From the IMG/VR virus record IMGVR_UViG_3300033074_000961: 64,000 nt of DNA; one strand, 5' to 3'. Each line of letters begins with the position of its first letter. Position 1 is the stretch's first letter. The stretch comes from a virus (Duplodnaviria > Heunggongvirae > Uroviricota > Caudoviricetes). Under the pieces are notes generated by a model. The model was not told where the DNA came from. It was given only the letters and a program-made list of their open reading frames with translations, and did no database searches. Position numbers and translations under genes: made by a program. Of this stretch, positions 1 through 63,415 are shown in pieces.

Positions 1-1560
1 GCGACACCCGCCATACATACCCGAAGGTATTTATTCTCCCCATCTTTATGCATCAGCAATGAATGAGGAATGACAAACCCACCAGTGTATGAACTGGTTG
101 AATTGGCACAGATTTGCTTGGGCGGTGTACCATAGAGCAGACAATACACCAAGGCATGACCCAATTCGTGAACCGCAACCAAGTGCTTGTAGTCATCCGT
201 GATTTCGTTACGAATCTGGTCAAGGACGGTAGGAATATGAATCTCTACCTTCTCGCCCCCAATCTTCGCCCACATTTTGTTCACGTCCACGGTAGCATGA
301 CACTTATCCGTATCTGCCAAGAGACATTTGTAGATGAAGGTAGGCAATGCCGAGGACAGAATGTTGGTGATAGTTGAGAGCAATGGACGCACCCCTTGAG
401 TCGGGAACACACCATTGTCGTACATCACTTTGTACACCGAAGGGTCAAAGGTAATTGTGATACCATTGGTGGTTGCAATCAGGTCGCCAATTTGCTTGCA
501 CTTCCTGATGATAATGTCCATGTAATTCTCCCTACTGAGCGAAGGATACAGAATATGCGAGTTGCCGAAACGGGCAATCTGTTCGGGACGGAAGCGATGC
601 CTCAAGGCATACTTGATGTCAATGACAGTCAGCTTCTTACTCCGTTCGTGATAGTAATCTGCATCGGCATCTGCCTCGCCAACATCATTGGCAATGCGGT
701 ATGCTTCGTCAAGATTTCCCGAAACGATGATAAGCATTTTCTTGAAAGAATCTCCCTCATAGAGTGCTGGATTATTGGCGCACTGGTCATAGAGACTCAT
801 GATTTTCTCGTCGTCCCACTTCATGATTTCTTCCATTGAATCCTGAACCTTGAAGAGACGCTTGACACGGCGAGCGAGATACACGGGCGTCTGATACTTG
901 CGCTTGACAGTTACTTTCTTGTCTTCGGCAACCGGAGGGGCACTACCTTCTGGTGTAGCGGCGACAGTATCATCTTTCTTGTTGTTTTTGCTGTTCGCTT
1001 TCTCCGTTTCTTCCCAATCCTTGTAATACTTACTATAGAGCAATTGTTCAAGCAACTCGGTCTTGCGAGTCAAGTCTGCTTGGAACTTACCATCACTCAG
1101 CAACGTCCATACGTCTTGGTGGGCATTGTTGTTGGTATTGACAGTGCCATCCTCTGCCACAGTGCGAAACTTCTGAAACTCGTCGAGGAACAAAATACAA
1201 CTTTCCTCGGGAGCGATGGAGGACGAGTCCAAGCGGTTTTGAATCTTCTTACTGGAATCATTGTCACCCTGCATTTCAATCTCAAGAAAGCGGTCTTGCA
1301 TTTTCATGTAAGAAACCATCTTTCTGATCATATCGGTCTTACCAACACCCGTGAGACCCCACAGACATACGATGGTAGGACGAATCTGCAACTCAGGAAA
1401 GATATACCAAACCTTGATGTTAGTCATTAGTTGGTCAATGATGTTATCCAGACCAACGAAGTCTTGCTTGAGTTTTGAAGCAATAGAGGCAAGCTCACGC
1501 TCTTTCGTCGCAATGTGCTCTACCATCTTTGCACGGTCAATTACTTTGTTTTTGGTTTCC
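1..1560 (-). CDS. AAA+ P-loop ATPase fused to an HExxH (FtsH/M41-like) metallopeptidase-like domain; partial, C-terminus lies beyond the window start
   Basis: Not in the ORF track because it runs off the edge. Manual minus-strand translation gives an uninterrupted frame from ATG at 1560 (alternative ATG 1527) to position 1. Motifs: Walker A GLTGVGKTD, Walker B ILFLDEFQK, then VAVHELGHALVY (HExxH) near the window start. Confidence 0.5.
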
Positions 1561-1768
1561 ATATTTTTGCTACTTTTTGTCTCCATGCCTCTTCTTCTTT
1601 CTCCTTCGCTTTCTTTCGCAGATAAGCGGAGAGAGAACGTTGCATGGATGGGATATGTTTCTTTTTGTCTGCCCGTTTATTCTCTTCGGCGTGTGCTTCT
1701 GCCAGCTTAGCAATATCCAACTCTTCATCGTTGGACAATACTCGCTTGGCAGTCTTGGGGTCCATATT
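1541..1768 (-). CDS. small basic hypothetical protein (internal start of ORF 1541..1906)
   Basis: Lys/Glu-rich C-terminus. Start moved to MDPKT so that it abuts the stop of the upstream gene. Confidence 0.3.
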   Translation of the reverse strand, partial: NMDPKTAKRVLSNDEELDIAKLAEAHAEENKRADKKKHIPSMQRSLSAYLRKKAKEKEEEAWRQKVAKIWKPKTK

Positions 1769-2168
1769 ACACCACAGGTTTCCAATCGGCAGGTATCTTC
1801 GCAAGGCGGATGATGCCTTTGTGATACCCCCACGCCACAAGGCGTTTGGCATTCTTATCCCTATGGTCAGGACCAACGAATGTATCGGGAAATCCAAACT
1901 CGTCAAACTTCACTTGCCGCCAACGAGTCTCGGGGAAATGCCCATCTTTGGAGGCGGGGATTGTTTCATCAAAGTACGTGCCAGTGACCACAACCACTTC
2001 CTTATCCAATCGTACCACAATCCATATGCGGCAACCACTATTGGGCAGTTCATTCCAACTCTTCCAATCAATGCGAAGGATGGATGATTTGCCAACTGCC
2101 TTGAGGAAGTCGTTATTCGGCAGTTCTTTTCCGCTTAGTACTTTGCTTTTCTTTTTGCTTTTCGTCAT
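1767..2168 (-). CDS. hypothetical protein
   Basis: 133-aa ORF with protein-like composition, in the same orientation as its neighbours. Confidence 0.45.
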   Translation of the reverse strand: MTKSKKKSKVLSGKELPNNDFLKAVGKSSILRIDWKSWNELPNSGCRIWIVVRLDKEVVVVTGTYFDETIPASKDGHFPETRWRQVKFDEFGFPDTFVGPDHRDKNAKRLVAWGYHKGIIRLAKIPADWKPVV

Positions 2169-2565
2169 AACGTTCTTGTCCTCTGTCTCTTTTGGGTTTC
2201 ACAAGGAAAACTTCCGCTAACCCCATGCTATAAAAAGTACTCAAATCTGGTCTGCCCTCGGGGTCTTCCGCAGTAGTTTTGACCCAACCCGTTTCGGGAG
2301 AGAACTTGGAAAACAATCCCAATGCCATACACTCGGCAGCACCGGGCCACAGTCCAGTCCATCGGGCAAAGAATGGATCGTGCCTCATGTTGCCCTTTTC
2401 ATCTTTGCACCCACCACATCGAAGCACTTGCCCACCACACCAAGAGCAGTGCTCAACATCGCACCCGCCCATGTGGGTCTCACCCGGCTTCGCACCGCAA
2501 TCGTGGCAGTTAGTCAGTTTGTCGTGGTTCATGTTACTTGGATTGTTTGTCAAAGCTGGGTGCAA
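2113..2565 (-). CDS. Cys-rich (zinc-ribbon-like) hypothetical protein with basic tail
   Basis: CHDCG...CSWCGG...CGGC motifs and a K/R-rich C-terminus. Confidence 0.4.
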   Translation of the reverse strand: MHPALTNNPSNMNHDKLTNCHDCGAKPGETHMGGCDVEHCSWCGGQVLRCGGCKDEKGNMRHDPFFARWTGLWPGAAECMALGLFSKFSPETGWVKTTAEDPEGRPDLSTFYSMGLAEVFLVKPKRDRGQERYDEKQKEKQSTKRKRTAE

Positions 2566-2722
2566 GGAAAGAGAGGACCATTGGCCATGCCATCATAACC
2601 ACATAGAAAAAGAAAACAAGTCCAATCTTATCCGACCCTTTTATAGATGGTGCAACCAATCCACATACATAGGATGCGAGAATGATGCCAACAATCAAAT
2701 AGAGAGCAAAGAACGTTTCCAT
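2534..2722 (-). CDS. small membrane protein
   Basis: Hydrophobic TM segments. Internal start METFF chosen because the upstream prs gene ends at 2724. Confidence 0.35.
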   Translation of the reverse strand: METFFALYLIVGIILASYVCGLVAPSIKGSDKIGLVFFFYVVMMAWPMVLSFLAPSFDKQSK

Positions 2723-2723
2723 A

Positions 2724-3686
2724 TTATTTGAAGAGTTCTGTAATACTATTGTTGTTGTGGGTTCCGAGGATAGCTTTACCAAACACGTCGGCAACACTTA
2801 CCACCGTGATGTACTCGGGAGTTTTCTTCATCCAATGGATTTCATCTTCCACAATTGAATCGGAGCAGAAGAAACGGGTGAATGTTCCCTTGCCCCAAGC
2901 TTCATGCAATCGTCCCGCACCCAACTCCGTAAGACAACCATGAGTCACGGCGAGATAAACATCCTTTGCCCCATTGTTCTTGCAACAATTGGCGGCACTA
3001 ATGAGAGTACCAGCAGACTCGGTAAGGTCGTCCAATACGAGCACGTTCTTGCCCTTCACGTCGCCCACGAACTGACTGACTTCAACATCAGTATCATTTT
3101 TGCGCTTCTTAACGATGAAGGCGAAGTCCACTCCATCCTTTTCTGAGAATTCCACTGCCTTTTTGATGCCTCCTGTGTCGGGAGCAACCACTACATCAAT
3201 CGAATACTTTTTCAATGCAGCGGAGAGAGTTGGTTGAAAGTAAAGGTGGTCCAGAGGAAGGTTGGTGAATCCTTGTACTTGCTGTGCGTGAAGGTCCATC
3301 GTAATGACACGATTGATTCCCGCAGCGGCAATAATATCAAGAACTAGCTTGGCAGAGATGGGGACTCGGGGTTTGTCTTTGCGGTCTTGGCGTGAATACC
3401 CAAGGTAGGGAATAACCGCAGTAATTCTGTCGGCAGAGGCACGGCGAGCAGCATCCGCCATGATAAGCAACTGCATCAGGTTATCATTGGCAGGTTGAGA
3501 AACCGCTTGCATCAAGAAAACGTCGGCACCCCGCACGTTCTCTTTCAGTTGGCAGTACCATTCACCCGAAGGAAACTGGTGATGATAGATTGCACCCCGA
3601 TTGATTGCATCGTGGCGAGCGGTTACGGATTTGGCAAGACGTTCACTCGCCTTACCAGCAAAGAGTACGCAACGTCGGTCTTTCAT
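2724..3686 (-). CDS. prs: ribose-phosphate pyrophosphokinase (PRPP synthetase)-family enzyme; could instead be an ADP-ribose pyrophosphokinase-type paralog
   Basis: Prs motifs DLHAQQVQGFF and VVAPDTGG; the 320-aa length is typical. Confidence 0.8.
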   Translation of the reverse strand: MKDRRCVLFAGKASERLAKSVTARHDAINRGAIYHHQFPSGEWYCQLKENVRGADVFLMQAVSQPANDNLMQLLIMADAARRASADRITAVIPYLGYSRQDRKDKPRVPISAKLVLDIIAAAGINRVITMDLHAQQVQGFTNLPLDHLYFQPTLSAALKKYSIDVVVAPDTGGIKKAVEFSEKDGVDFAFIVKKRKNDTDVEVSQFVGDVKGKNVLVLDDLTESAGTLISAANCCKNNGAKDVYLAVTHGCLTELGAGRLHEAWGKGTFTRFFCSDSIVEDEIHWMKKTPEYITVVSVADVFGKAILGTHNNNSITELFK

Positions 3687-3724
3687 GGTAGGTCAGTATA
3701 ACACACCCAAGATAATTGTCAAGG

Positions 3725-4540
3725 TCATTGTGGAATACGAACTCTGTGGACAGAACCCGGTCTTGTTGCTGCCGGTGGAGTGTAAACTAATTCATCACTA
3801 TAGACAGATTCAAGACCATTCGTAATATAAGCAGTAGCTGCATAGTAGGTGGGAATTCCTACAATGATGTTTGATAAAGTTATCGTCAACATTGCCTTGG
3901 CATCTACAACATTAGTATAGTTTCTACTTGACGGTCCAGAGTACACTTTATATTGAATGAACATGTTAGTGGAACTTGGGCTGGCATCCCACGCCAAAGT
4001 AACCTTTGCGTAAGTATTGGTTGAAGGCGGGAGATTTGTTATTGCATTAGCATAGATACAATAATTGAAATCAACGTTGCCACTCTGCATTGTTAGAGTC
4101 GTGGGCCATTGTCCATATGTTCTTGGCGAGCTTTCCCAACGAGTCGAACCACCACTTGTATTACAATATATTGCCGCTCCCTGTGTGTCAGACCATGAGG
4201 CAAACCAATAATACTGTCCATTAGTAAGAGAAACATTTGTCGCCAATGGCAATGAATACCAACCCGAAGACGGATTGGATATTTCTGAACTTTGTTGCAT
4301 CAATTGTGACGGACCAGAAGAATTTCCTGCATAGATTGCGAATTTGTATCTACCTGAAATACCAACAACTCGGGCATTTAGAGTAGAAATAGTCATGTTG
4401 GATGACGCTTGGAAACGAGACACATTGATATAGTTGTTAATTGGGTCGGAAGTAGTTCCGTTGCTATTATTTCCGATGAATGCATTAGCATTAACCACAA
4501 GGGTTAATAGAAATGAAATTGTTATCAGTAATGTTTTCAT
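3725..4540 (-). CDS. secreted hypothetical protein (N-terminal signal peptide, Asn/Ser/Thr-rich)
   Basis: MKTLLITISFLLTLVVNANA signal peptide. Confidence 0.5.
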   Translation of the reverse strand: MKTLLITISFLLTLVVNANAFIGNNSNGTTSDPINNYINVSRFQASSNMTISTLNARVVGISGRYKFAIYAGNSSGPSQLMQQSSEISNPSSGWYSLPLATNVSLTNGQYYWFASWSDTQGAAIYCNTSGGSTRWESSPRTYGQWPTTLTMQSGNVDFNYCIYANAITNLPPSTNTYAKVTLAWDASPSSTNMFIQYKVYSGPSSRNYTNVVDAKAMLTITLSNIIVGIPTYYAATAYITNGLESVYSDELVYTPPAATRPGSVHRVRIPQ

Positions 4541-4545
4541 AATGT

Positions 4546-5184
4546 TTATTCTCCGTATTTCTCAATTCCTTCTTGTCCAAAGCGGTTGAACAGTTTGTCC
4601 AAGTATGCTTGGGTTTTGATTTTGCACATCCAGATACCGCCTCTATGGGCACCCGTCTTCAATGTGCCTTTGCATACCACGCCCTCAGTAACAGGGTACT
4701 TGCCTGCCCTTACATCAGCAATGAATTGGTCCGTGAGGTTGCCAGTATAAACAACCTTGGGAGATATGATTTTGTATTTCTCACTTAGATTAACAAACTC
4801 TTGGGGTGATAGGAACTTCCTATTCTTATGCCCCACCATGATGTCAAAGCATACGAGACGCTGGGTTGGGTCATTGGGTTCATGCCATCCCGCAAAGGAT
4901 TGGTCGCCAAAGAACTCAAGGAAGGCGATGACTTCACGCTCATTGGGAAATTCACCCTCAATCAAGTCCACGAGGGGATTCTCAAAATGCTCATAGAAGT
5001 ATGGAATAGCAGGAGCGAGGAACGGATGCCCTTTATCAAACATCTGTGTGCGACTTCCAAACAAATGGAAACCTTTCTTGTTCGTGTACTTCACACGAAT
5101 GTTGCTGCCATCAAGCTTATCAAAGGCAATCATTGACTCCCGAGGAGCCTTGCCGCTTGGCATTATGGATGGATATTCAATCAT
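4546..5184 (-). CDS. RNA-ligase-family nucleotidyltransferase (KxDG motif I)
   Basis: AFDKLDGSNIRV matches ligase motif I (KxDGxN). Short, nucleotidyltransferase domain only. Confidence 0.5.
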   Translation of the reverse strand: MIEYPSIMPSGKAPRESMIAFDKLDGSNIRVKYTNKKGFHLFGSRTQMFDKGHPFLAPAIPYFYEHFENPLVDLIEGEFPNEREVIAFLEFFGDQSFAGWHEPNDPTQRLVCFDIMVGHKNRKFLSPQEFVNLSEKYKIISPKVVYTGNLTDQFIADVRAGKYPVTEGVVCKGTLKTGAHRGGIWMCKIKTQAYLDKLFNRFGQEGIEKYGE

Positions 5185-5777
5185 ACAAATGCTAATCCGT
5201 TTGTGTATTGTGGGTCATTGTCTGCGAACCCAACGTGCCCACGGTCCTCAACGAGTGTGGGTTTGTCATTGTGCATCAAGTAATGCTTATAGGCACGGTC
5301 ATACATCACGATGTACACCGCAGCGGCAAGGTTGGTGCAATGCCGTGTGGGTATCTTTACAAATCTGTGGCAGTGACGACGCATCACTGGTGGTATGCTG
5401 CCATCCTCGGGACCAAAGACGTACACTGCATCCTCGGGATGTTCAAAGTCCATCAAGCATTCGGAGTTGTCCACCAACTCAATTGCTACTGGTGTAATAC
5501 CTTTACCAAAATGCTCAAAGGGATAGTCAAACTGACGCAATTCAACATCCTTATATCCCTTGAGACGTTCCTCTCTTGGAAGTCGTTGTCCTTCATCCAG
5601 ACGCACACGATTACCAGTCCACCACACTTGCTTGAAACCAAAGCACGATGCTGCCCGTTGTACCGCACCTACGTTGGCAGAGTACTTGGGATTACATAAA
5701 ATCACGGCAGGGACAATCCCCTCGGGTTTACTATTCTTTCCGTATATGGCAGCAGCATTCATATGTCGTAGGCACAC
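5181..5777 (-). CDS. SPOUT (SpoU/TrmH-family) RNA 2'-O-ribose methyltransferase
   Basis: VYVFGPEDGSIP plus HCTNLAAAVYIVMYDR (TrmH motifs 2 and 3); N-terminal NVGAVQRAASCFG. Overlaps the ligase gene by 4 nt. Confidence 0.6.
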   Translation of the reverse strand: MCLRHMNAAAIYGKNSKPEGIVPAVILCNPKYSANVGAVQRAASCFGFKQVWWTGNRVRLDEGQRLPREERLKGYKDVELRQFDYPFEHFGKGITPVAIELVDNSECLMDFEHPEDAVYVFGPEDGSIPPVMRRHCHRFVKIPTRHCTNLAAAVYIVMYDRAYKHYLMHNDKPTLVEDRGHVGFADNDPQYTNGLAFV

Positions 5778-5971
5778 TCACGGGTGCAATCAGGACAGCA
5801 GGTACAATGAGGGTCGGTATTACCAGACATCTCTTCCGAGTAAGGACAGGAATGTGGTTCGCTTGCGGGATTACGCTTGCACCTTTTGCAGAGGTCTTTT
5901 TCTTCTTTGACTTCGCTATCCATATTGTGCCAGTTCTTTTTCCAACAGTTCTTTGTATTCGTTGTGGTCAA
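5759..5971 (-). CDS. small Cys-rich hypothetical protein
   Basis: CKRCKRN...CTCCPDC pattern. Confidence 0.3.
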   Translation of the reverse strand: MTTTNTKNCWKKNWHNMDSEVKEEKDLCKRCKRNPASEPHSCPYSEEMSGNTDPHCTCCPDCTRECAYDI

Positions 5972-6152
5972 GCAGTGCTTTGACCGCTTCGTTCAAAGTA
6001 TCTGCCAACTTCTTGCGCTCGTCGTCATCGTGCAACCCAAGAGCAATCTTGGTGTTGTCCACTTCGACATCTACATCGCAATACTTGGCAAGGTTTCGGA
6101 CTGTAATTGTCATACGTAATGTCGCCATCCACCCTTGGAGTTTGGTTGCCAT
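5916..6152 (-). CDS. hypothetical protein
   Basis: Charged, helical 78-aa ORF. Confidence 0.3.
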   Translation of the reverse strand: MATKLQGWMATLRMTITVRNLAKYCDVDVEVDNTKIALGLHDDDERKKLADTLNEAVKALLDHNEYKELLEKELAQYG

Positions 6153-6307
6153 CCAAGTTCTGTAAGGCGAGCGGTTTTTTCTTCGTCGTACTTCGTTACA
6201 TCAAGTCCGGCGATGATGACATCGTGCTCGGCACTGATGATGGTTGCTGGTTCTACGGACTTCACTATCTGAAGTCCCTCAATGATTAAGTCTAAAGTTG
6301 AGTGCAT
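6110..6307 (-). CDS. hypothetical protein
   Basis: ORF in a run of same-strand genes. Confidence 0.25.
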   Translation of the reverse strand: MHSTLDLIIEGLQIVKSVEPATIISAEHDVIIAGLDVTKYDEEKTARLTELGWQPNSKGGWRHYV

Positions 6308-6311
6308 ATGT

Positions 6312-6647
6312 TTATCCTAACGCCCAATTACAAATCCCCATGAACTCTCGGGGTTTCTCGTCCTCGGGCAAAAATCGCCATTCTCGTTTTTCGGTATCCC
6401 ATGCCCACCACTGTTCAGAGTGGACCATTGGGTGAATACCGGGTTCAATGTATTCCATTACCACATAGTCATACAAACACTCTTCAATGTTGCCACGGTT
6501 CTCTTTGACCGCAGTGTACGCTTCATTGTAGGTCGGATAGAATCCGAAAGTGCGCTTGCGAGAAAGGTATCGTTTATGGACACCGTATTCTTTCGCTTGC
6601 TTTTCCAGCGTTTCTTTACCAATGATTGATGTTATGAACCACGGCAT
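6312..6647 (-). CDS. hypothetical protein
   Basis: 111-aa ORF. Confidence 0.4.
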   Translation of the reverse strand: MPWFITSIIGKETLEKQAKEYGVHKRYLSRKRTFGFYPTYNEAYTAVKENRGNIEECLYDYVVMEYIEPGIHPMVHSEQWWAWDTEKREWRFLPEDEKPREFMGICNWALG

Positions 6648-6931
6648 AGTTGTAAAATCAGTTTGTTGACAAAATCTTTTCTGTCCGCTTCATTCAAGTT
6701 ATCCGAGTATGGTATAATCTCAGGTGTGAATGAAAGCAGCAAGGTGCGAGTTATTTCTCTTGGGTCGCCACGCAATGCTGACATCGTAATCAAGGGTTTC
6801 CCTTGATACCACCACGTATCAGAATAAGTGCCCCACTTGCCAACCCAAGGTTTGTTTACAAAACCAAGTTCAGTTAGCAGTTCCGCCAACCTTTTCTTGC
6901 TTGTTTTTCTTTTTTGGTTTGCCATATTCAC
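6632..6931 (-). CDS. hypothetical protein
   Basis: 99-aa ORF. Confidence 0.35.
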   Translation of the reverse strand: MNMANQKRKTSKKRLAELLTELGFVNKPWVGKWGTYSDTWWYQGKPLITMSALRGDPREITRTLLLSFTPEIIPYSDNLNEADRKDFVNKLILQLCRGS

Positions 6932-7070
6932 AATCGGGACAAATGACTAGCGGCTCTCCGTGGTTATGAAGCTGCCAAGCGAGAATACGCCACTTGGCGT
7001 ACGAAATGTCTTTCGCATCACCGAATGACTGTTTCTCGCCGCACTCACAGCATTCCAGCTTCCAACTCAT
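6870..7070 (-). CDS. zinc-ribbon hypothetical protein
   Basis: CCECG...CPDCEYG. A σ70-like promoter lies immediately upstream. Confidence 0.35.
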   Translation of the reverse strand: MSWKLECCECGEKQSFGDAKDISYAKWRILAWQLHNHGEPLVICPDCEYGKPKKKNKQEKVGGTAN

Positions 7071-7077
7071 CGTTGCC

Positions 7078-7110
7078 AGATGATACCACGCTTCTACAAA
7101 AAGTCAAGCT
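7078..7110 (-). promoter_or_regulatory. σ70-like promoter (TTGACT-N16-TGnTATCAT) for gene 6870..7070; its -35 box is half of the palindrome AGTCAAGCTTGACT
   Basis: Read on minus strand: CTTGACTttttgtagaagcgTGgTATCATctggcaacgATG. Confidence 0.5.
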
Positions 7111-7138
7111 TGACTTGGAACTATTTATGGTGTATGAT
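7110..7138 (+). promoter_or_regulatory. σ70-like promoter (TTGACT-N17-TATGAT) firing divergently from the same palindrome; start codon lies about 7 nt after the -10 (leaderless)
   Basis: cTTGACTtggaactatttatggtgTATGATagcgacaATG. Confidence 0.45.
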
Positions 7139-7145
7139 AGCGACA

Positions 7146-7283
7146 ATGAAGAAATTGTGGGACAGAGTAAAGTGGATAGGTGAGTGCCTATTCGTCTGGT
7201 GTATATTGCTCCCCATAATGATAATCCTGATGCAATTGTGGAAAAAGGATTACGAAAAGATGACCGACAACCGCTATGATTGA
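7146..7283 (+). CDS. small membrane protein (probably leaderless; shortened from ORF 7080..7283)
   Basis: MKKLWDRVKWIGECLFVWCILLPIMIILMQLW hydrophobic helix. The ATG sits at the predicted transcription start. Confidence 0.35.
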   Translation: MKKLWDRVKWIGECLFVWCILLPIMIILMQLWKKDYEKMTDNRYD

Positions 7284-7572
7284 CCTGAATAAAGTTCGAA
7301 GCATCCGTGCCCTTGAAGGGATGAAGAAGGATTTGACCGAGTTCGCCACATTTGATCGAGCGATAATGGTACAGGTCTATGACGAACAATATGGTTGGGG
7401 CGAGGAAGATTACGAGGCAGACCTTGACCAAGTTAAGGAAATGCTTGAGAAGGTGGAGCGTCGTATCAATAGTCTTTCCAACTATTTGAATAAGCAAAAG
7501 GTTAAGGTGGATAAGAAGAAGCATGGACAATCTGGTGCATCGGAATCCCCAACCGCTTCACAATCTGCTTAA
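7276..7572 (+). CDS. hypothetical acidic coiled-coil protein
   Basis: Protein-like 98-aa ORF. The antisense ORF 7045..7530 is low-complexity. Confidence 0.4.
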   Translation: MIDLNKVRSIRALEGMKKDLTEFATFDRAIMVQVYDEQYGWGEEDYEADLDQVKEMLEKVERRINSLSNYLNKQKVKVDKKKHGQSGASESPTASQSA

Positions 7573-8215
7573 TGCTTCCGTCTTTCTTATCCTTAATCTC
7601 TTCGGGCACAGTACAACCAACATGGATTTCTCCATTGTTCAAGTCGTAGTGGAATGATTTATCGAAGATACCTTCTTTCCTCACACGATCCAGATACTTT
7701 CTGATTGTGTCTGCCGTGCCGCCTTCTTTCACTTCTGACCCCTTGCCGAAAGTACAGGCAAGGATGAAGTCCGACTTGGCAACGAGTGCATTACGAGCGA
7801 AGAACCCCCTTGCAACAGGAATCAACTCAGCACCTTCCGCCTTTGCTATTTGAATCTGTGTAAGGGAGTTGATGTTGGTAGCCTTTTGAAACTGCCGATG
7901 ATAATAATTGGCAGTACCCCCGGGATTCTTATGGGAATCTCTTACGCCACTATCATAGAAAGACCCACCTTCAAATTCGGCGGGGAGGAAGAGACGAAGA
8001 TGGGGCACTTTCTTATCAAGAAATAGTTTTACTGCTACGTGATCTGCCCACGCTGCCCCACCTGATACCAAGTGTGAAATAGGATAATTGCTCTCCGCAA
8101 ACTGGTCAACTAAACCAGATGCAACGATGCACATGGCTTCAAAGTGTTTCTTTGAAAGCTTCTTTGCATCATCATTGCGTCCAGCCGTACCAACGATTGC
8201 GAAGGTGATTTCCAT
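7502..8215 (-). CDS. SLOG/DprA-like Rossmann-fold protein
   Basis: AIVGTAGR, VSGGAAWADHVA, FFARNALVAKSDFILA resemble DprA/Smf/SLOG motifs. Internal start MEITF chosen to abut the upstream gene. Confidence 0.4.
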   Translation of the reverse strand: MEITFAIVGTAGRNDDAKKLSKKHFEAMCIVASGLVDQFAESNYPISHLVSGGAAWADHVAVKLFLDKKVPHLRLFLPAEFEGGSFYDSGVRDSHKNPGGTANYYHRQFQKATNINSLTQIQIAKAEGAELIPVARGFFARNALVAKSDFILACTFGKGSEVKEGGTADTIRKYLDRVRKEGIFDKSFHYDLNNGEIHVGCTVPEEIKDKKDGSIKQIVKRLGIPMHQIVHASSYPP

Positions 8216-8216
8216 T

Positions 8217-8630
8217 TTACATGAAGACGACTTTGAACACCCATGCGAACAATATGCAAACCCACGGAGAGAGTAGAGGCACGAGGACTTCTGTAACTCT
8301 ATCCGAGACGGTCTTGGTCTTGTCCGCTTCACTGTTCAACTTCACTGTATGGGAACTGGTTACGAAGCGAACGACCATTAAAATAGCAGCTGCCTGAACC
8401 CATGTCAGTGCTTTGAGTCCGAGAATGGGGACCACGAACCATCCCCACAGGACAGAGAGGGCATAACCATAAGCAAAAACTCCATAATCCCAACCGAGAG
8501 GGAGAAGGAGAATGAAACCGAGTATAGCAGCAAGTGCTACACCAACTGACAGATTTTCGTCTTTCATATTTTTGTGTTTATTGAGAGCGGCCATCCGCTT
8601 TGCTTCTTCTTCGAAAAGGGATGGCTTCAT
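8217..8630 (-). CDS. multi-pass membrane protein
   Basis: Several hydrophobic segments. Confidence 0.45.
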   Translation of the reverse strand: MKPSLFEEEAKRMAALNKHKNMKDENLSVGVALAAILGFILLLPLGWDYGVFAYGYALSVLWGWFVVPILGLKALTWVQAAAILMVVRFVTSSHTVKLNSEADKTKTVSDRVTEVLVPLLSPWVCILFAWVFKVVFM

Positions 8631-8632
8631 GA

Positions 8633-8914
8633 TTAGAACGAGACAAGGGTTGGAGCTTGACGAACCAAGCGGTTACGAGAGAATGCTTTGAACTGTCCAT
8701 CCTTGGTAGAATGTGGATTGTCCAATTCATTACCCTTGATGTAGTCTGCATCGGCAGAGGTTACACGAAGATAACGGACTTTCATCTTGCCCGTTTCGCT
8801 ATCGGGGTATTCGAATTCCACTACGGGATAGCGGGGTTCTGGTGATGGAGTTGTCGCCGCAGTGGGCGGTGCCGGTGATTGTGCTGGATTACTCATATTG
8901 GGGCAGTCTATCAT
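8633..8914 (-). CDS. hypothetical protein (Pro/Ala-rich N-terminus)
   Basis: 93-aa ORF. Confidence 0.35.
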   Translation of the reverse strand: MIDCPNMSNPAQSPAPPTAATTPSPEPRYPVVEFEYPDSETGKMKVRYLRVTSADADYIKGNELDNPHSTKDGQFKAFSRNRLVRQAPTLVSF

Positions 8915-9369
8915 GCCTTGGGCGATTTGTCAACTTCTTTCCATTCGCCTATGGCAATCAGTTCATTTTTGATAGCGGTCCAATCCGTCTCGGGTTCAAA
9001 CCCTGCACGGTCATCTAGGAGGACGCTGAAATAGAATTTTTTGTTGAAATCGCTCCGAGGCGTGTTCTTGGCGTGAGGATTGGAATTGATATAATCAAAA
9101 TGAATTCCTTCATCTTCCAACCAATTGTAAACTTCGAAGAGTCGAGCAATCGGAGTTGAAGTCCACAGAATGAGCATAATGTCTTTCCGCTTGCTCAACA
9201 TCTGGAGAACTTCCTTGGCATCGGGGTAGAACTTGTGCTCGTCGGTCTTATCATCAGACCCCTTGCCACTCGGGATGATAGTGCCGTGTAAATCAATACA
9301 GAAGTACACTTCAGGCCATCCCTTGACCTTCTTCATGTCAAATGTCTTTCTGATATTGAATAGGTTCAT
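8911..9369 (-). CDS. hypothetical protein, possibly HAD-like hydrolase fold
   Basis: FCIDLHGTII is only loosely similar to HAD motif I. Confidence 0.3.
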   Translation of the reverse strand: MNLFNIRKTFDMKKVKGWPEVYFCIDLHGTIIPSGKGSDDKTDEHKFYPDAKEVLQMLSKRKDIMLILWTSTPIARLFEVYNWLEDEGIHFDYINSNPHAKNTPRSDFNKKFYFSVLLDDRAGFEPETDWTAIKNELIAIGEWKEVDKSPKA

Positions 9370-9698
9370 CGTCGTTTCCTTCCGAGACGCATAAGATTGT
9401 GCATCTGCTTTTGTTCAAATATCTTTACCTGCAAGTGATGCCCTTCCTTAAACCTTTCGTCGGGAGCAGCAACCGCAGCACCGTCATAAGCAGCAAGCAC
9501 TTTCCTTACAGTATCTACCTTAATGGCGGCGAGTTGTTGAAGTTTGAACAACAAGGTCTCCGTTTGAGATTTATTCAACCCACGATGGACACAATGAAGG
9601 GCAATCCTGTGTTCAGGACTGCCCTTCTTTAGCAAATCCCCAGCCACGGCAGCAACTTCGTACTCCCGTTCTGTTAGGGGTTTGGCGTACTTATTCAC
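9366..9698 (-). CDS. hypothetical protein with possible C-terminal HTH (LTEREYEV)
   Basis: Weak similarity to LuxR / sigma region-4 HTH. Confidence 0.3.
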   Translation of the reverse strand: MNKYAKPLTEREYEVAAVAGDLLKKGSPEHRIALHCVHRGLNKSQTETLLFKLQQLAAIKVDTVRKVLAAYDGAAVAAPDERFKEGHHLQVKIFEQKQMHNLMRLGRKRR

Positions 9699-10470
9699 GG
9701 CGGAAGGTTGGGATTGGGGCCAACTTGTGCAGAGTGGCAGCGTGCCGAGTCGTGTAGATTTCCAGCACTTGCTTCTGCCGAGGGGTTAATCCTTCAAGCA
9801 GGACCGTGGAGTAGCACCCCTTGCCATCTTCCACCCACTTCATTGCCCATTCCAGTTCCTCGTACGATGCACCAATGGCATCTTCATCCGTGCGGGTGTC
9901 CGCCCACAGACCATCCGTAGGAACTGCCTCAGAGAGTTCTGGCAGCACGCCCAAGTCACGGCACATCTGCCGCACTTCGGTCTTGGTCAAGTCGGAGATA
10001 GGAGAAATGTCCACACCACCATCACCATACTTGGTGAAGAAACCGATACCAAAGTCTTCCACCTTATTGCCGGTGCCTACTACGAACGCACCCTTGCAGC
10101 ACGCCACTTGATAAAGAGCAATCATGCGAAGGCGACTCTTCGTATTGGCAAAGGCAAGGTCATTGTTGTAGTCAATGCGGACTTCTTCACGAAACGCTTC
10201 AAACGTAGTCGTAAGGTCAATCTTGTGGAAAACTACATTGTTGTAGTTATCCTGCAACCAGTCAATGTGCTTTTCACCACGACTGGTTTGGTCGCCCTTG
10301 GTTTGACATGGAAGAATGACGCAGTGGGTCGGGAGTCCCGTCATTGCACAGAGGGTGGACACCAATGCGGAATCAACACCACCCGATACGCCAATTACCC
10401 AACCTTTGGCACCATTCTTTTTTGCGTAGTTATTCAACCACGCCACGATTTCATTTGCTAGTTCTTTCAT
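9691..10470 (-). CDS. nadE: NH3-dependent NAD+ synthetase
   Basis: PP-loop GVSGGVDSALV; 259-aa length and overall NadE architecture. Confidence 0.85.
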   Translation of the reverse strand: MKELANEIVAWLNNYAKKNGAKGWVIGVSGGVDSALVSTLCAMTGLPTHCVILPCQTKGDQTSRGEKHIDWLQDNYNNVVFHKIDLTTTFEAFREEVRIDYNNDLAFANTKSRLRMIALYQVACCKGAFVVGTGNKVEDFGIGFFTKYGDGGVDISPISDLTKTEVRQMCRDLGVLPELSEAVPTDGLWADTRTDEDAIGASYEELEWAMKWVEDGKGCYSTVLLEGLTPRQKQVLEIYTTRHAATLHKLAPIPTFRRE

Positions 10471-10471
10471 A

Positions 10472-10681
10472 TTAGAAACACTCCGTCTTTTTTGTTACAC
10501 CGAATTTCTTCATTGTTCTCTTCATGTCCGCAACCGCATCCCGCTTACGTTTGAAGGGAAGTCGGTTGGTAATCCACGCATCAGCAAACATACCGGGACC
10601 AAACCAAATGGGACATGCCCATTCCCATTGCCTATCAAGGCGACGGTTGAGGGTTCTGCGATAGGAGACAATCTCTTTCAT
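10472..10681 (-). CDS. hypothetical small protein
   Basis: 69-aa ORF between nadE and pncB. Confidence 0.3.
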   Translation of the reverse strand: MKEIVSYRRTLNRRLDRQWEWACPIWFGPGMFADAWITNRLPFKRKRDAVADMKRTMKKFGVTKKTECF

Positions 10682-11874
10682 GCTCCAATCTCCTGTAATG
10701 CCCGTTGAATTGCAGCGGCATCGCCTGTGTGCTTGCCAGCGTCATCCGAGAGCTTGACCACGGGAATCATACCTTGCCCGAAGTCAGCAGCAGTCAGTTT
10801 GATAACCATATTCAGCGGTTTGACTCCAACATCGTTAGTGAAGTTCGTTCCGATACCACCAACCGGCTGAGCAACTTTGCGATACTTATGGTCAATCGCC
10901 ACATAGTTGTAGTTTTTGCCAGCCATCACTTGGTCCTTCGGGGCAACCCCGAGACTGTCACTGAACACGAGACGCTTACCAATGGGATTGATACGCATAC
11001 GAGCGTAGAACGGCAGTACCTTATTGTCTGCCCAATCATAGGGTACACCCGAGTCTTGCCGCAGTCCATCGTACAGGTGAGCATCGTACTTCTCAAACTG
11101 ACGAAGGAAAAAGTCGGTCGTGAAAGTATCACTAAGAGATACACCAACATCACCCTCAAAGTGCTCTGCCCACACTTTGCGCCACATTTTGTCTGCCATG
11201 CGAACACCGTACAGTGCCGACATTGCCATAATGCATTCGTGGGCGTATGTGCCATGAGGGGTCACACCATACTTGAAAGCGAAATAGGGATTGCTCGTGC
11301 CGAGGAATCCATTAAGCATACGCATCTGTTTAACGACGGCTTCTTGAATCCTCTTGGCGAAACGACGGCGAGTGCCGAAGTCAATCCAGTGGCATCCCTC
11401 AGTCTGTAGGAGCACGCCTTTGTTCTCAATCCGTTGTTCCCACTCAGCATCGGGTTCTTGTCCCGTCATAATGAAATACAACTCGGAAATGATTGCCATG
11501 AGTTTGACTTCCCAGTAAATCGTGCGATACCACGGACCACGGATTTTGATACGAAGGTCTCCACCCTCTTGGGTAATGGTCACTTCATTGGGATTCATCT
11601 GATACCCATACAACCATTCAACATAGGTCGGGCGCATGTAAGGAATCTTCTTGAGCCAATCTGCCTCAAGATTGGTTAGACCAATGTGAGACAGCAAGTT
11701 GATTTGATGCTGTAGGTTTTCGGCAAACCCCTCGGGAAACTGAGTTTTGCCCCGGTTGAAGAAGGTGTACTCCACAATGGCACGGGGAAACATATGGAAG
11801 ACCACAGACCCCATGTTAATCTTGTAGAGGTCATCGTCCAACATGCTTGTGATAATCGGGCCTTTCACGTTCAT
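10678..11874 (-). CDS. pncB: nicotinate phosphoribosyltransferase
   Basis: DLYKINM N-terminus and GTSNPYFAFKYG region typical of PncB; 398 aa. Confidence 0.8.
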   Translation of the reverse strand: MNVKGPIITSMLDDDLYKINMGSVVFHMFPRAIVEYTFFNRGKTQFPEGFAENLQHQINLLSHIGLTNLEADWLKKIPYMRPTYVEWLYGYQMNPNEVTITQEGGDLRIKIRGPWYRTIYWEVKLMAIISELYFIMTGQEPDAEWEQRIENKGVLLQTEGCHWIDFGTRRRFAKRIQEAVVKQMRMLNGFLGTSNPYFAFKYGVTPHGTYAHECIMAMSALYGVRMADKMWRKVWAEHFEGDVGVSLSDTFTTDFFLRQFEKYDAHLYDGLRQDSGVPYDWADNKVLPFYARMRINPIGKRLVFSDSLGVAPKDQVMAGKNYNYVAIDHKYRKVAQPVGGIGTNFTNDVGVKPLNMVIKLTAADFGQGMIPVVKLSDDAGKHTGDAAAIQRALQEIGA

Positions 11875-19065: not shown

Positions 19066-19296
19066 TCAAGTTCTTTCTGCAACTTCTTCAAGTTGCTCTG
19101 CCGTAAGGGGTTTCCATCCTTCGATTTTTCCAGTGTCGTTGTCAATGGTGAGGCGAACATAGTCACCACCACCAATGCCAAGGTTGCGAGGCACTTCCCC
19201 ATTATATTCAAGTTCTGTCTCAAGGACTTTCATCCCGAAGCAGTCACTACACTTTGCCACGATTCGTATTTTCATATCAGTTTGTTTGTAGGGCAA
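19066..19296 (-). CDS. hypothetical protein
   Basis: 76-aa ORF. Confidence 0.3.
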   Translation of the reverse strand: MPYKQTDMKIRIVAKCSDCFGMKVLETELEYNGEVPRNLGIGGGDYVRLTIDNDTGKIEGWKPLTAEQLEEVAERT

Positions 19297-27891: not shown

Positions 27892-28094
27892 CATTGCTTT
27901 ACGAGTGATTTGTACGTGCCAGCGGGACATCCGCCACAATCCACCTTGCCACAACCGAGGCAACGTTCTTCATTGACAACCTTATACTTTTTTCCATTGG
28001 GGTTGCACTTACCACAGGCATAAGGTATGTCGTCAATGATAATGAAGCGAAAGTTTTCGCAGCACGGGCATTCAGATTTCTTCTTAGTCGCCAT
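27891..28094 (-). CDS. Cys-rich small protein
   Basis: CPCCEN...CGKC...CLGCGKVDCGGC. Confidence 0.35.
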   Translation of the reverse strand: MATKKKSECPCCENFRFIIIDDIPYACGKCNPNGKKYKVVNEERCLGCGKVDCGGCPAGTYKSLVKQ

Positions 28095-35051: not shown

Positions 35052-35230
35052 TCTGAGTCCTCTTCCTCAATCACCTTTTTCTTTCGGGGTGAGTGATTAT
35101 GGTAATGCTTGTGGATATTGATAATCCCTTTCCAAGGCCAATCACCAATCCAAAAGCTTGCAAAGGCGATGATACCTACAATGGATACTACTGCCGAGGG
35201 CCATGAGACTATTTCAGCTAACATAATCAT
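35048..35230 (-). CDS. small membrane protein
   Basis: Single TM helix. Confidence 0.3.
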   Translation of the reverse strand: MIMLAEIVSWPSAVVSIVGIIAFASFWIGDWPWKGIINIHKHYHNHSPRKKKVIEEEDSE

Positions 35231-36366
35231 TTCTTTCCTTGGAAGCAGTTGTCGGGGTCAATGTTGGCGTAGTTCGGAGTCCCAAGACCCGTCAAACCAT
35301 TGTAGCAGAAAGTTACTTCCTGACCAACCCATTTGTCAGTGTTCTTCAAAATCTCACGACGAGTCTCTTGCGAACCCTTAAATGTTGCATTGAATGTCTT
35401 ACCCTTCCACTTGATTTCGGCAGTGGCAGCGAGTCCGCTTGCATTCCCCGTACCTTCAAAGATGGTGAGAATGATACCTTCACTGTCATCAGTGGGCTTC
35501 ACCTTGAGAAGGTTGTATGAACGTTTGTGCTCGTAAGGAGCATTGCAGTTGCGAATGATAGAACCTTCATATCCATCCTTCACGTCTTCATCATAGATGG
35601 CGTACACATCATCCAATGTAGTCGCAAGACGATACGGCACCCACACTACGTACGGAACCTTATGCAACAGTTCTTTGAGTGCCTTGCGGCGTTCGAGATT
35701 GCCCGTTTGGGCAGTGATGCCTTCAAACCCATAACCATCGTACACATAAAGGCGCACGATTTGCTCTGAGCGGCGAAGCAACTCAGGAGTAATCTTGGAC
35801 TGCTTGGTGGTCCGCAGAATGGACATGAGTTCATTCAACTTAAACCGAAGGTCGTGGTTATATCCCTCACCATCCAAAAGGAGATTGGGATACTTATCAA
35901 ATAGGGGTTCAATTGCTTCCCAAATGTGGGGAATGGATGCATATTGCTCGCCCTTACGGGTAAAGAGTCCCCGTGCTTCTCCCACAACACGCCCACCGTT
36001 GTACTTCTTATCAACCATACAAGGTAGTTGAACCTTATCGGCATGGTCACGAAGCTTGTGGGCAAGCATCGGTTCAATGAACCGAGCGGTCTTGTCAATA
36101 TCCTTGATGTCTTCCCAATACCCTTCCCGCTTGATTTTCTTCTTCCACTTGGAATCTGCTTCCAACTGAGCCTGTTGCTCGTCAGTCGTCTCGTTTGCCT
36201 GACCTTTGTTCTTACCAGTACAAACAGACCACTTGGACGTTATCATATTGGGACTTCCCATTTTACCAACGATGGTTCGGTACTTGTTACCCTTAACCTC
36301 AATGCGCCATTCTTGGACAGATCCATCGCTATTGCGAGAGTAAAGTTCTGGATATTGGAGTATCAT
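35227..36366 (-). CDS. ATP-dependent DNA ligase
   Basis: EPMLAHK, motif I KKYNGGR (Asn in place of the usual Asp), motif III LLLDGEGY, motif IV EGSIIRN, motif V LLKVK. Confidence 0.6.
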   Translation of the reverse strand: MILQYPELYSRNSDGSVQEWRIEVKGNKYRTIVGKMGSPNMITSKWSVCTGKNKGQANETTDEQQAQLEADSKWKKKIKREGYWEDIKDIDKTARFIEPMLAHKLRDHADKVQLPCMVDKKYNGGRVVGEARGLFTRKGEQYASIPHIWEAIEPLFDKYPNLLLDGEGYNHDLRFKLNELMSILRTTKQSKITPELLRRSEQIVRLYVYDGYGFEGITAQTGNLERRKALKELLHKVPYVVWVPYRLATTLDDVYAIYDEDVKDGYEGSIIRNCNAPYEHKRSYNLLKVKPTDDSEGIILTIFEGTGNASGLAATAEIKWKGKTFNATFKGSQETRREILKNTDKWVGQEVTFCYNGLTGLGTPNYANIDPDNCFQGKK

Positions 36367-41864: not shown

Positions 41865-42656
41865 TCATTTTGGATATTCAGGTATCATTGCAAGGATTTT
41901 ATCCTTATCTTCGGTAAACTTCCACGCACCCTTGGAAACCCATCTAGTGCGCTCAACGGTGTTGTCTTGAATTTGAGCTTCAAAACTCTCTTTCACAATG
42001 AGACGCCCGTTCTTCTCACCATCGGTGTAATCCGTGGCCCAGTTCTTACCCGCTTGGTGAATCATCTCATGCTTGTCCGAAGTGGACTTGCCGTGAAGCT
42101 CCTTGTGCGAGTACAGGGATTGAGCAACCATTGAGACAGAGTTGCGAGCACAATCTTGATTACGCCAGATGAAGTAGTTCATCACTTCAACTCTGTCAGG
42201 AATGGTGAATACACGGGCATCAAAGAATGCCAGATGCTTTCGCATCCTCGCTTCTTTCAAATCCATTGGCAGTGTTTGAGTAATCTTAAACGCTCTCTCA
42301 AGCCGACATTGATTGAATTCCGCAGTCATGATAGATGCCGCCACAGAACACATTTTCTGTAGGTTGCCGTCAAACCATGCACAAGTACCAATGTCAACGA
42401 AGTCGGTCAAAAGTACACTGATCTCGTCAGATTGGGTATAGGCGAAGACCGCCCCCTGAAGTTCTGGGAGCATCGCAATGATTGCGGCGTCAATGTCCTC
42501 AAAGAGTCCTTTGTCAAAAGGTTTCTCAAGTCCTCGGGTGTACGTATGAAATGCCTTACCATCCAGACGGATGATTGTGTAAGTGCGTCTTGGCAGTAAG
42601 AACCGAGTACGGTCCTCATACTGCCCCTTCATTCTGTCGCCAAGTGCGTCTTGCAT
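41865..42656 (-). CDS. Thg1-like protein (tRNA-His guanylyltransferase / 3'-5' nucleotide polymerase family)
   Basis: RLDGKAFHTYTRGLEKPFD, AYTQSDEISVLL, FFDARVFTIP, NYFIWRNQDCARNSVSM follow the Thg1 family motif pattern. Confidence 0.6.
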   Translation of the reverse strand: MQDALGDRMKGQYEDRTRFLLPRRTYTIIRLDGKAFHTYTRGLEKPFDKGLFEDIDAAIIAMLPELQGAVFAYTQSDEISVLLTDFVDIGTCAWFDGNLQKMCSVAASIMTAEFNQCRLERAFKITQTLPMDLKEARMRKHLAFFDARVFTIPDRVEVMNYFIWRNQDCARNSVSMVAQSLYSHKELHGKSTSDKHEMIHQAGKNWATDYTDGEKNGRLIVKESFEAQIQDNTVERTRWVSKGAWKFTEDKDKILAMIPEYPK

Positions 42657-62298: not shown

Positions 62299-62477
62299 TG
62301 CCCGACTTGCCCGACATTGTGGTTCATCTTCCGGCAGAGCATTTCGATGCTCTGTCGGAAGTTATCTTTTCGGGACTTCAACGGGCAAACATTGACCCTA
62401 AGACCCGCAACGAGCTTCGGGATTGGTGGACCGCCGAAAAGGAATTCATAGAAGACGAAATAAAGGGACAAGCGTGA
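62298..62477 (+). CDS. small hypothetical protein (59 aa, below the ORF-track cutoff)
   Basis: Manual translation MPDLPDIVVHLPAEHFDALSEVIFSGLQRANIDPKTRNELRDWWTAEKEFIEDEIKGQA. TAATG and GTGA couplings on either side. Confidence 0.3.
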   Translation: MPDLPDIVVHLPAEHFDALSEVIFSGLQRANIDPKTRNELRDWWTAEKEFIEDEIKGQA

Positions 62478-63415
62478 GCGAGATTGTTATTGTAATGGGA
62501 TTCCCCGCCTCGGGGAAGAGTACGACGGTTGACCAATTTGTTAAACAAGGGTACACCCGCTTCAATCGTGATGCTGCTGGCGGCACAATGGAAGGTTTAC
62601 ATAATGCCGTTGACCAATACCTTCAGAAGTGCAACGACAATGTAGTACTTGATAATCTTTATCCTTCGGTGGAAAGTCGCAAGGCAATCATCGCCATCGC
62701 CAAGAAGCACAAGGCAACCATTCGGTGTGCCATGATGGGTACAAGCATGGAAGATTCTATGCTGAATGCCTGTCTCCGCATGATGCAGAAGCATGGATGT
62801 ATCCCCGACCCCAAAGATTTTGGACGAGTGGCAGACCCTAACACCTTCCCCGTAGCAGTTATCTACAAGTATCGGAAAGAGTTTCAACAACCGACCACAA
62901 AGGAGGGATTCGGTTCTGTCCAAGTAGTGCCGTTTGTTCGCACTTGGGGACCAGATTACATCAACAAAGCCATCCTTGTGGACTATGATGGCACTCTCCG
63001 ACTCAGCACGGGTAAACAGAAGTTCCCTATTCTTAAAGGGGATATAAAGATGATGCCGGGAAGGAAGGAAGTCCTACAACGGTACAAGGACCAAGGGTAT
63101 CTTATTTTGGGCGTAAGTAATCAATCAGGTGTCGCCAAGGGGCAGATTACCTTCGCTGAGTGCAAGCAACGATTTGTTGATACCAATGAAATGCTTGGGA
63201 AGGGTATCGTGGACGAATTCTCGTTCTGCCCTCACAAAGTCCCACCCATTTCATGCTACTGCCGCAAACCCAATGTTGGAATAAGTGCTTTTTACATTTA
63301 TCAACACAAGCTTCGACCTTCGGAATGTATCATGGTTGGCGATATGGGGAGCGATAAAACATTCGCTCATAGAAGTGGGTTTAAGTTTGTTCATGCCGAC
63401 GAATTTTTCAAATAA
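62474..63415 (+). CDS. pnk: polynucleotide 5'-kinase / 3'-phosphatase (T4 Pnk-like)
   Basis: N-terminal P-loop IVIVMGFPASGKST, C-terminal HAD phosphatase ILVDYDGTL ... GDMGSDK. GTG start 62474 preferred (P-loop near the N-terminus as in T4 Pnk). The ORF track gives ATG 62423. Confidence 0.65.
   Translation: MSEIVIVMGFPASGKSTTVDQFVKQGYTRFNRDAAGGTMEGLHNAVDQYLQKCNDNVVLDNLYPSVESRKAIIAIAKKHKATIRCAMMGTSMEDSMLNACLRMMQKHGCIPDPKDFGRVADPNTFPVAVIYKYRKEFQQPTTKEGFGSVQVVPFVRTWGPDYINKAILVDYDGTLRLSTGKQKFPILKGDIKMMPGRKEVLQRYKDQGYLILGVSNQSGVAKGQITFAECKQRFVDTNEMLGKGIVDEFSFCPHKVPPISCYCRKPNVGISAFYIYQHKLRPSECIMVGDMGSDKTFAHRSGFKFVHADEFFK

Follow-up and report, generated by a model that had tools for sequence, protein, structure and literature searches.

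We analysed a 64,000-nucleotide (nt) stretch of viral DNA (hereafter the window; Caudoviricetes, IMG/VR record IMGVR_UViG_3300033074_000961) in which a gene for a small RNA ligase directly follows a gene for a SpoU/TrmH-class RNA 2'-O-methyltransferase (hereafter methylase). An initial annotation of this DNA had read the two, together with a polynucleotide kinase (Pnk) encoded elsewhere, as a translationally coupled repair-and-immunise couple akin to bacterial Pnkp/Hen1. The three enzyme assignments (RNA ligase, SpoU methylase, Pnk) held, whereas the proposed couple found no comparative backing; what emerged was a genuine but loose linkage of two genes in the RNA-repair arsenal of a phage, apparently separate tools of one toolkit. 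Both open reading frames (ORFs) and their 4-nt overlap were confirmed on the minus strand, with the methylase upstream (Table 1). The methylase frame, as initially delimited, reaches a GTG at 5777 (5181..5777, 198 aa); its true start is likely the ATG at 5762, which is the start of the metagenome gene call P0121 and fits the N-termini of homologues. The junction itself reads ...TTT GTA TGA / ATG ATT GAA.... No other type of gene junction was as frequent in the window as the 4-nt overlap (19 of the 82 same-strand junctions, 23%), so that the one between methylase and ligase carries little information; we regard it as compaction of a phage genome and not as the mark of an obligate partnership.

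Profile searches placed the ligase in PF09414 (RNA_ligase) and the methylase in PF00588 (SpoU_methylase), both above the Pfam gathering threshold. The PF09414 match spans ligase residues 19-173 (2.2e-10, 41.4 bits against a cut-off of 27), and the protein also matched PHROG 548 (RNA ligase). Its family comprised 596 homologue clusters in metagenomes, with the motifs conserved. In alignments of 28-30 homologues the invariant residues were K23 and D25 of motif I (KLDGSN), R45, E90 (motif III), F113-D114 (IIIa), K172 (EGVVCK, motif IV), and K188 and K190 (V), which make up the motif set of covalent nucleotidyltransferases, including the lysine of the KxDG motif. These catalytic motifs were invariant among homologues at 60-90% identity and still conserved at 37%.

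Searches of the PDB with the single ligase sequence and with a profile (phmmer, hmmsearch) matched no ligase chain, and a picornavirus polyprotein match at 0.016 was discarded as spurious; a comparison of folds was therefore needed, for which the structure was predicted from alignment A2. The predicted structure best matched T4 Rnl2, trypanosome REL1 and Naegleria Rnl5, with an identity of just 14-20% to these structures, and lower scores were obtained for Rnl3 (12.7), for chains deposited as DNA ligases (at most 12.3), for Rnl1 (12.1) and for capping enzymes (at most 8.2). The initial annotation had named a DNA ligase or a capping-like enzyme as the identity that would overturn its assignment. 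This fold ranking and the invariant motifs excluded both, and the PF01068/OB-fold signature was absent. The protein consists of the nucleotidyltransferase (NTase) core followed by one C-terminal helix (192-210), which ends in a conserved KYGE, and terminates at residue 212. Its NTase domain is nearest to those of Rnl2 and REL1, yet it is not followed by the signature C-terminal domain of the Rnl2 family (in Shuman's sense), nor preceded by the N-terminal domain that defines the Rnl5 family (DraRnl/NgrRnl), so that the protein is neither an Rnl2 nor an Rnl5 in the strict sense, though it lies within PF09414. The PF09511 match and the tRNA-specific C-terminal domain of the Rnl1 family (T4 Rnl1) were likewise not found in it. 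Sequence and predicted fold together identify the 212-aa protein as an ATP-dependent RNA ligase of the Rnl2/REL1/Rnl5-like clade that consists of the NTase domain only, close to the stand-alone NTase domain proposed to be ancestral (PMC4408790).

The methylase matched PF00588 over the whole profile (2.6e-15, 57.2 bits against 29.7). SpoU motifs 1-3 were invariant in 30 homologues, disposing of the reservation in the initial annotation that the SPOUT knot motifs might be missing from a proper alignment, and the predicted structure was a minimal single catalytic domain of SPOUT fold with the knotted C-terminal S-adenosylmethionine (SAM) site of the SpoU/TrmH class. Specific to the family are a basic insertion, RLPREERxKGY, and a conserved N-terminal segment, GKNxKPxG. 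With 3220 homologue clusters in metagenomes, about five times the number for the ligase, the family is large and nearly confined to uncultured large phages (154 IMG/VR contigs versus 2 of 50,697 GenBank phage records); BFVD held just two matching SpoU folds, both from giant viruses. The best fold match was AviRb (PDB title: SpoU rRNA methyltransferase), with RlmB, the 23S rRNA G2251 2'-O-methyltransferase, third and a nosiheptide-resistance 23S rRNA methyltransferase tenth. None of the NCBIfam equivalog or subfamily cut-offs for TrmL, TrmJ and TrmH was reached (TrmL, 17.8 bits against 190.6; TrmJ/YjtD, 35.6 against 167.15), so no specific target nucleotide was assigned. The JGI name for the protein, TrmL, was rejected on this score and on the fold ranking. 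Separately, two related phages carry a second, distant SpoU-like ORF at a distance of a few kb from their main methylase (L017:4017-4673 and L048:3441-3980; hidden Markov model (HMM) matches of 1.5e-7 and 4.3e-9).

A megablast search with the locus against GenBank phages gave no match, and the association of the two genes was examined in homologous loci, where co-occurrence was judged within ±10 kb of each match. Of 49 IMG/VR loci with a ligase homologue, 9 (six of them distinct) had a methylase homologue at most 10 kb away, with the same result by tblastn and by HMM. Among the best 80 metagenome ligase loci the methylase lay upstream of the ligase in 14, with gaps of 42, 117, 160, 428, 483, 674, 694, 703, 823, 832, 981 and 1126 nt. 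No methylase was detected in the 6 kb upstream of the close ligase relatives L160 (76% identity) and L173/L174 (68%), nor within 6 kb of the ligase in any of 23 loci from cellular or metagenome-assembled genomes, which included the complete Limnoglobus roseus chromosome and cyanobacteria and showed no conserved neighbour either. Seen from the methylase side, a ligase was nearby in 11 of the best 80 (of 154) viral loci, and these 11 account for nine of the top 11 methylases by similarity to the query, namely ranks 1-8 and 11 among the matches listed. The association looks like that of one lineage and, being confined to one methylase clade, counts as roughly one evolutionary event.

The genes lying between the two members of the pair varied: one contig has a deoxyribosyltransferase-like gene and an 86-aa ORF there, a 357-kb phage has three small ORFs, and in a 595-kb phage the interval of 7.3 kb holds AAA, ArdC-like and Macro genes. 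In the last of these, an uncultured phage, the methylase homologue (63.5% identity; L158:13923-14517, LR756511.1 about 152027-152501) was itself split into two ORFs of 113-114 aa, owing to a frameshift or else to an error of assembly. Directly upstream of the ligase we found an IGPS-like gene in seven loci, a deoxyribosyltransferase-like gene in six and assorted small ORFs elsewhere, and these genes often overlap the ligase by 4-8 nt themselves. In other phages the ligase is thus "coupled" to different upstream genes, which speaks against the functional inference of the initial annotation. The IGPS-like and deoxyribosyltransferase-like neighbours recur within sub-lineages only; no Pfam family was recurrent in the two genes to either side of the ligase at 34 non-redundant loci, and no conserved ligase partner was revealed by de novo clustering of neighbours, by this Pfam scan or by the identity of the immediate upstream gene. 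An Rnl1-type ligase occurred near the small ligase in 10 of the 49 viral loci, about as often as the methylase did. Taken together, the association is real and looks like block synteny, in the order methylase > small ligase > Prs (PRPP synthetase) > Rnl1, within one jumbo-phage lineage, of which the direct juxtaposition in the window would be a compacted form.

In GenBank phages, ligase homologues were found in huge-phage records only, all at less than 40% identity, and both families are nearly absent from cultured phages. Ligase homologues of 34-41% identity also stand alone in planctomycete and cyanobacterial genomes at a host-like GC of 60-70% (L136-L157; for the Limnoglobus roseus PX52 chromosome, L149, 4867639-4880262), indicating that the family of NTase-only ligases is not restricted to phages.

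End healing can be assigned to a gene 57 kb away from the pair, where the T4 Pnk-like kinase/phosphatase of the initial annotation was confirmed together with its T4 domain order, an N-terminal P-loop 5'-kinase followed by a C-terminal HAD 3'-phosphatase. Its open frame extends over 62423..63415 and contains, at 62474, a GTG that overlaps the stop codon of the ORF before it. The protein carries the P-loop GFPASGKST near its N-terminus and VDYDGTL in its C-terminal half, and matched PF13671 and PF08645, the kinase part of TIGR01663 (1.9e-23) and HAD-IIIA (TIGR01662, 1.3e-18) in NCBIfam, and in the PDB the kinase domain of mammalian PNKP (1.8e-17) and T4 Pnk (4.3e-4).

A further ligase came to light on the closest contig, a 223,629-bp Logan contig (L050) that is 99.96% identical to the window over positions 1..9368 and diverges beyond. 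About 8.4 kb downstream of the small ligase on this contig, some 3.9 kb beyond the window start, lies a gene of T4 Rnl1 type, which makes the small ligase a second ligase and not necessarily the partner of Pnk. The view that this phage goes beyond the T4 Pnk and Rnl1 pair was amended in this sense: an extra ligase and a methylase are indeed present, but so is a canonical Rnl1 on the near-identical contig. The window also encodes a Thg1-like protein, a further RNA-repair component, since the activity of this family is a 3'-5' nucleotide addition that repairs tRNA 5' ends. It encodes a separate DNA ligase and an NAD-centred set of genes with Macro and NUDIX proteins alongside; HD and histidine-phosphatase genes were also identified. 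The window and the sampled flanks yielded neither tRNA genes nor Rfam RNAs that might serve as substrates for the methylase.

Table 1 Features of the window and of the near-identical contig L050.
Feature	Position	Strand	Remarks
Small RNA ligase gene	4546..5184	-	212 aa; downstream member of the pair
SpoU/TrmH-class methylase gene	5181..5762	-	193 aa from the ATG at 5762; upstream of the ligase
ATGA stop/start overlap of methylase and ligase	5181..5184	-	4 nt; direct sequence reading
Candidate Cys-rich small ORF	5759..5923	-	54 aa (CxxC...CxCCxxC); absent from the metagenome annotation; weak evidence
ORF with signal-peptide-like N-terminus	3725-4540	-	271 aa; between ligase and Prs; no Pfam or PHROG match
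Sigma-70-like near-consensus promoter	3695-3722	-	TTGACA-16-TATACT with an upstream TG; 11/12 matches
PRPP synthetase (Prs)	2724-3686	-	NAD-centred set
NAD synthase	9691-10470	-	NAD-centred set
NAPRTase-like	10678-11874	-	NAD-centred set
Polynucleotide 5'-kinase/3'-phosphatase (Pnk)	62474..63415	+	P-loop kinase N-terminal, HAD DxDGT phosphatase C-terminal
T4 Rnl1-type RNA ligase	L050:19038-20132	minus strand of the window	364 aa; PF09511; T4 Rnl1 match 1.4e-5
Thg1-like protein	41865..42656	-	PF04446 4.7e-27; PDB 4kgk (Thg1-like protein) 3.8e-46
Separate DNA ligase	35227..36366		PF01068
Macro protein	27439-27963	-	alongside the NAD-centred set
NUDIX protein	18015-18944	-	alongside the NAD-centred set
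DnaJ-Ser/Thr kinase fusion	46186-47193	-	PF00226 + PF00069 (2.6e-35)
PP2C phosphatase	13922-14701	-	
DUF2828 + DUF7788 protein	50958-52514	-	518 aa; no PDB sequence match
Band_7/SPFH protein	31317-32669	-	450 aa
ORF with class II aminoacyl-tRNA synthetase core match	19277-19942	-	221 aa; PF00587 1.4e-5, below the gathering score
Thymidylate synthase	37708-39006	-	432 aa

Two further ORFs flank the pair. The stop of the candidate Cys-rich small ORF overlaps the methylase ATG by 4 nt, again as ATGA, and its sole homologue found sits directly upstream of the methylase in another locus (L159), with 52% identity and an in-frame stop. No full-length homologue of the 271-aa ORF was found at the same position in related viral loci, where the only match covered 45 aa (L003). 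Judging by the promoter just upstream of Prs, the methylase-ligase-orf271 train may be transcribed separately from Prs. The window and L050 part between window positions 9369 and 10778, where L050 encodes a 668-aa glutaminase-fused NadE and the window a 259-aa NAD synthase, and beyond the divergence point the NAPRTase region is merely 86% identical between them; the region has the appearance of a hot spot at which near-identical phages recombine.

Among the remaining genes of the window, a eukaryote-type Ser/Thr protein kinase with a fused DnaJ domain forms, with a separate PP2C phosphatase, a signalling pair that is unusual for a phage. No Rfam RNA was found near the DUF2828/DUF7788 and Band_7 genes. 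The 221-aa ORF, whose match to the class II aminoacyl-tRNA synthetase core is weak, could be a truncated protein of that type. In the thymidylate synthase ORF about 70 residues precede the Pfam domain, and the ThyA match covers 362 residues against a profile of 266 positions, which suggests an insertion or extension.

From gene structure, families, motifs, folds, genomic context and distribution we infer the following substrates, division of labour with Rnl1 and possible protective role of methylation. In the interpretation that we favour and consider probable, the small ligase is an active, domain-minimal nick sealer that works after Pnk and complements Rnl1, and the methylase works separately from it, modifying an internal ribose of tRNA or rRNA. 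The two would be co-expressed from a tightly packed gene train in the counter-defence/RNA-repair region of an uncultured jumbo phage. Pnk would convert breaks with 2',3'-cyclic-phosphate and 5'-OH ends into 3'-OH and 5'-phosphate ends, after which the small ligase would most likely seal those held in duplex or folded RNA, with the T4 Rnl1-type ligase handling anticodon-loop breaks. Such a division would agree with the sealing of duplex nicks by Rnl2/Rnl5-type ligases and of loop breaks by Rnl1/Rnl4 types (PMC4408790). The SAM-dependent SpoU methylase would 2'-O-methylate one internal position of a folded RNA, most likely a tRNA and less likely an rRNA, and would act alone, either blocking toxins that cleave through the 2'-OH or tuning translation.

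Some observations weigh against this interpretation. On their own, the NTase domains of T4 Rnl2 and NgrRnl perform ligase adenylylation or 5'-phosphate nick sealing poorly (PMC4408790), so that a ligase made of this domain only might require a partner in trans, possibly the adjacent methylase. Moreover, co-occurring pairs were always on the same strand and within about 7 kb (from -4 nt), with the methylase upstream in every case except L048, in which it lies downstream of a truncated ligase fragment. This methylase-first order, seen in about 17 distinct loci including the 357-kb and 595-kb phages, exceeds random placement in genomes of 50-600 kb, yet shared descent can explain it. The same order would also fit a Hen1-like couple, in which Pnk heals tRNA ends, the SpoU enzyme adds a methyl group to the 2'-OH at the broken site, before or shortly after sealing by the small ligase, and re-cleavage is thereby prevented; the methylase may in addition supply the RNA-binding function missing from the domain-only ligase. 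The overlap and shared orientation in the window, the immediate succession of the two genes in L161, L172 and L175 (three other relatives, with gaps of 42-160 nt), the want of the accessory domain on which Rnl2 and Rnl5 depend for steps 1-2 (PMC4408790) and the richness of the genome in RNA-repair genes all speak for such a couple, which would gain weight if the ligase proved to require a partner in trans. We nevertheless deem it quite unlikely, given that the methylase is missing from most ligase loci and the ligase from most methylase loci, that unrelated and variable genes intervene, that the whole association amounts to about one evolutionary event, that 4-nt overlaps are generic in this genome, and that Pnk is distant and has a canonical Rnl1 partner. 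Furthermore, SPOUT methylases are known to act on internal nucleotides of folded RNAs and not on 3' ends, and the phage methylase has no extra domain. A bolder version, in which the SpoU enzyme and the domain-less ligase would form a two-protein machine evolved independently of Pnkp/Hen1, with the dimeric SPOUT protein binding the broken tRNA and methylating the break nucleotide, seems very unlikely to us; if true, the SPOUT protein would give the ligase substrate recognition in trans and the repaired RNA would be immune to host anticodon nucleases.

The methylase might instead be a stand-alone "vaccination" or translation-takeover enzyme directed at intact host or phage tRNA (for example at position 32 or 34) or at rRNA, so as to forestall ribotoxins or retune decoding, with the ligase serving a non-tRNA role, such as sealing nicks at RNA-DNA junctions in replication or repair, and the adjacency being incidental. 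In its favour are the fivefold larger size of the methylase family, whose members are mostly found without the ligase, the weak TrmL/TrmJ signals and the JGI names, and the resemblance of the predicted fold to AviRb (by its PDB title), RlmB and the nosiheptide-resistance enzyme, which are directed at rRNA; Rnl2/Rnl5 enzymes, for their part, accept a DNA 5'-phosphate strand (PMC4408790). We consider this reading unlikely, since neither tRNA genes nor Rfam RNAs were found in the window or sampled flanks, a dedicated DNA ligase is present, and the small ligase repeatedly shares a block with Rnl1, which points to RNA repair. A further reading, in which the 212-aa protein could not ligate unaided and would be a relic or an adenylyltransferase with another acceptor, would account for the missing accessory domain and for the lack of sequence-level similarity to any solved ligase; it is rendered highly improbable by the conservation of all catalytic motifs described above, by the spread of the family over phages and planctomycete and cyanobacterial chromosomes with host-like GC, and by the ligase fold predicted with high confidence. 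Active nick sealing by the ligase alongside an independent methylase thus remains our preferred interpretation.

Ever more bacterial defences that cut tRNA are coming to light, and the phage counter-measures known so far, to our knowledge, are repair (Pnk with a ligase) and replacement tRNAs. A literature search for phage SPOUT or 2'-O-methyltransferase anti-defence returned nothing relevant. The present analysis brings to light a large SpoU 2'-O-methyltransferase family that resides almost wholly in uncultured large phages, and a natural family of NTase-only RNA ligases common to jumbo phages and to planctomycete and cyanobacterial genomes. Were the methylase to shield a scissile ribose, it would represent a new kind of anti-defence, in which host RNA is chemically immunised either in advance or after repair. 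The ligase could show how sealing works without an accessory domain and might serve as a compact tool enzyme. The genomic evidence is that of a loose, lineage-specific association, which yields a testable hypothesis and not a demonstrated repair-and-immunise system.

Compared with individual enzymes, the small ligase differs from T4 Rnl2 and trypanosome REL1, and from the Naegleria and Deinococcus Rnl5 enzymes, in lacking precisely the C-terminal and N-terminal domains, respectively, that confer efficient adenylylation and 5'-phosphate nick sealing (PMC4408790). The methylase shares the SPOUT fold and the three SpoU motifs with TrmH, TrmL, TrmJ, RlmB and AviRb, and is of the minimal size of TrmL and TrmH, but is set apart from all of them by its insertion, its N-terminal segment and the absence of an equivalog-level score.

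As in bacterial Pnkp/Hen1, end healing, ATP-dependent sealing and 2'-O-methylation are all encoded in one genome, with the methylase and ligase genes adjacent. Hen1, however, is a Rossmann-fold 3'-terminal 2'-O-methyltransferase with a dedicated N-terminal domain that activates the ligase, a fold different from SPOUT, whereas the phage methylase is a single-domain SPOUT enzyme. Pnkp joins kinase, phosphatase and ligase in one polypeptide, whereas the phage ligase is a stand-alone protein and Pnk is the product of a separate gene. Nor is the operonic pairing of methylase and ligase conserved in phages (9/49 viral, 14/80 metagenome and 0/23 genome loci). Because the methylase fold differs, the proteins are unfused and the operon is not conserved, the phage pair is not a Pnkp/Hen1 system, and the Hen1/Pnkp-like coupling initially proposed has little in its favour, the linkage being loose, limited to one lineage and missing from most ligase loci.

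Closer parallels are found among phages. Jumbo phages often combine Rnl1, Rnl2-like ligases and Pnk-HAD, with several non-redundant RNA ligases in one genome, and XacN1, which we found to carry a homologue of the small ligase, has been cited for three Rnl2 paralogues (PMC7824862). The phage resembles these arsenals in having Rnl1, Rnl2-like ligase and Pnk-HAD genes alongside NAD-salvage and Macro genes, and departs from them in its methylase, as the text of that survey makes no mention of SPOUT, TrmH or RNA methyltransferase (Iyer et al. 2021, PMC7824862). The likeness to the T4 Pnk and Rnl1 pathway of anticodon-loop repair lies in the domain order of Pnk and in the Rnl1-type ligase on the near-identical contig, although the kinase domain of the phage Pnk is nearer to that of mammalian PNKP than to T4 Pnk, and the methylase and small ligase are an addition to that pathway. 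By analogy, the pair appears to resemble part of a T4-type healing-and-sealing toolkit to which an RNA methylase has been added.

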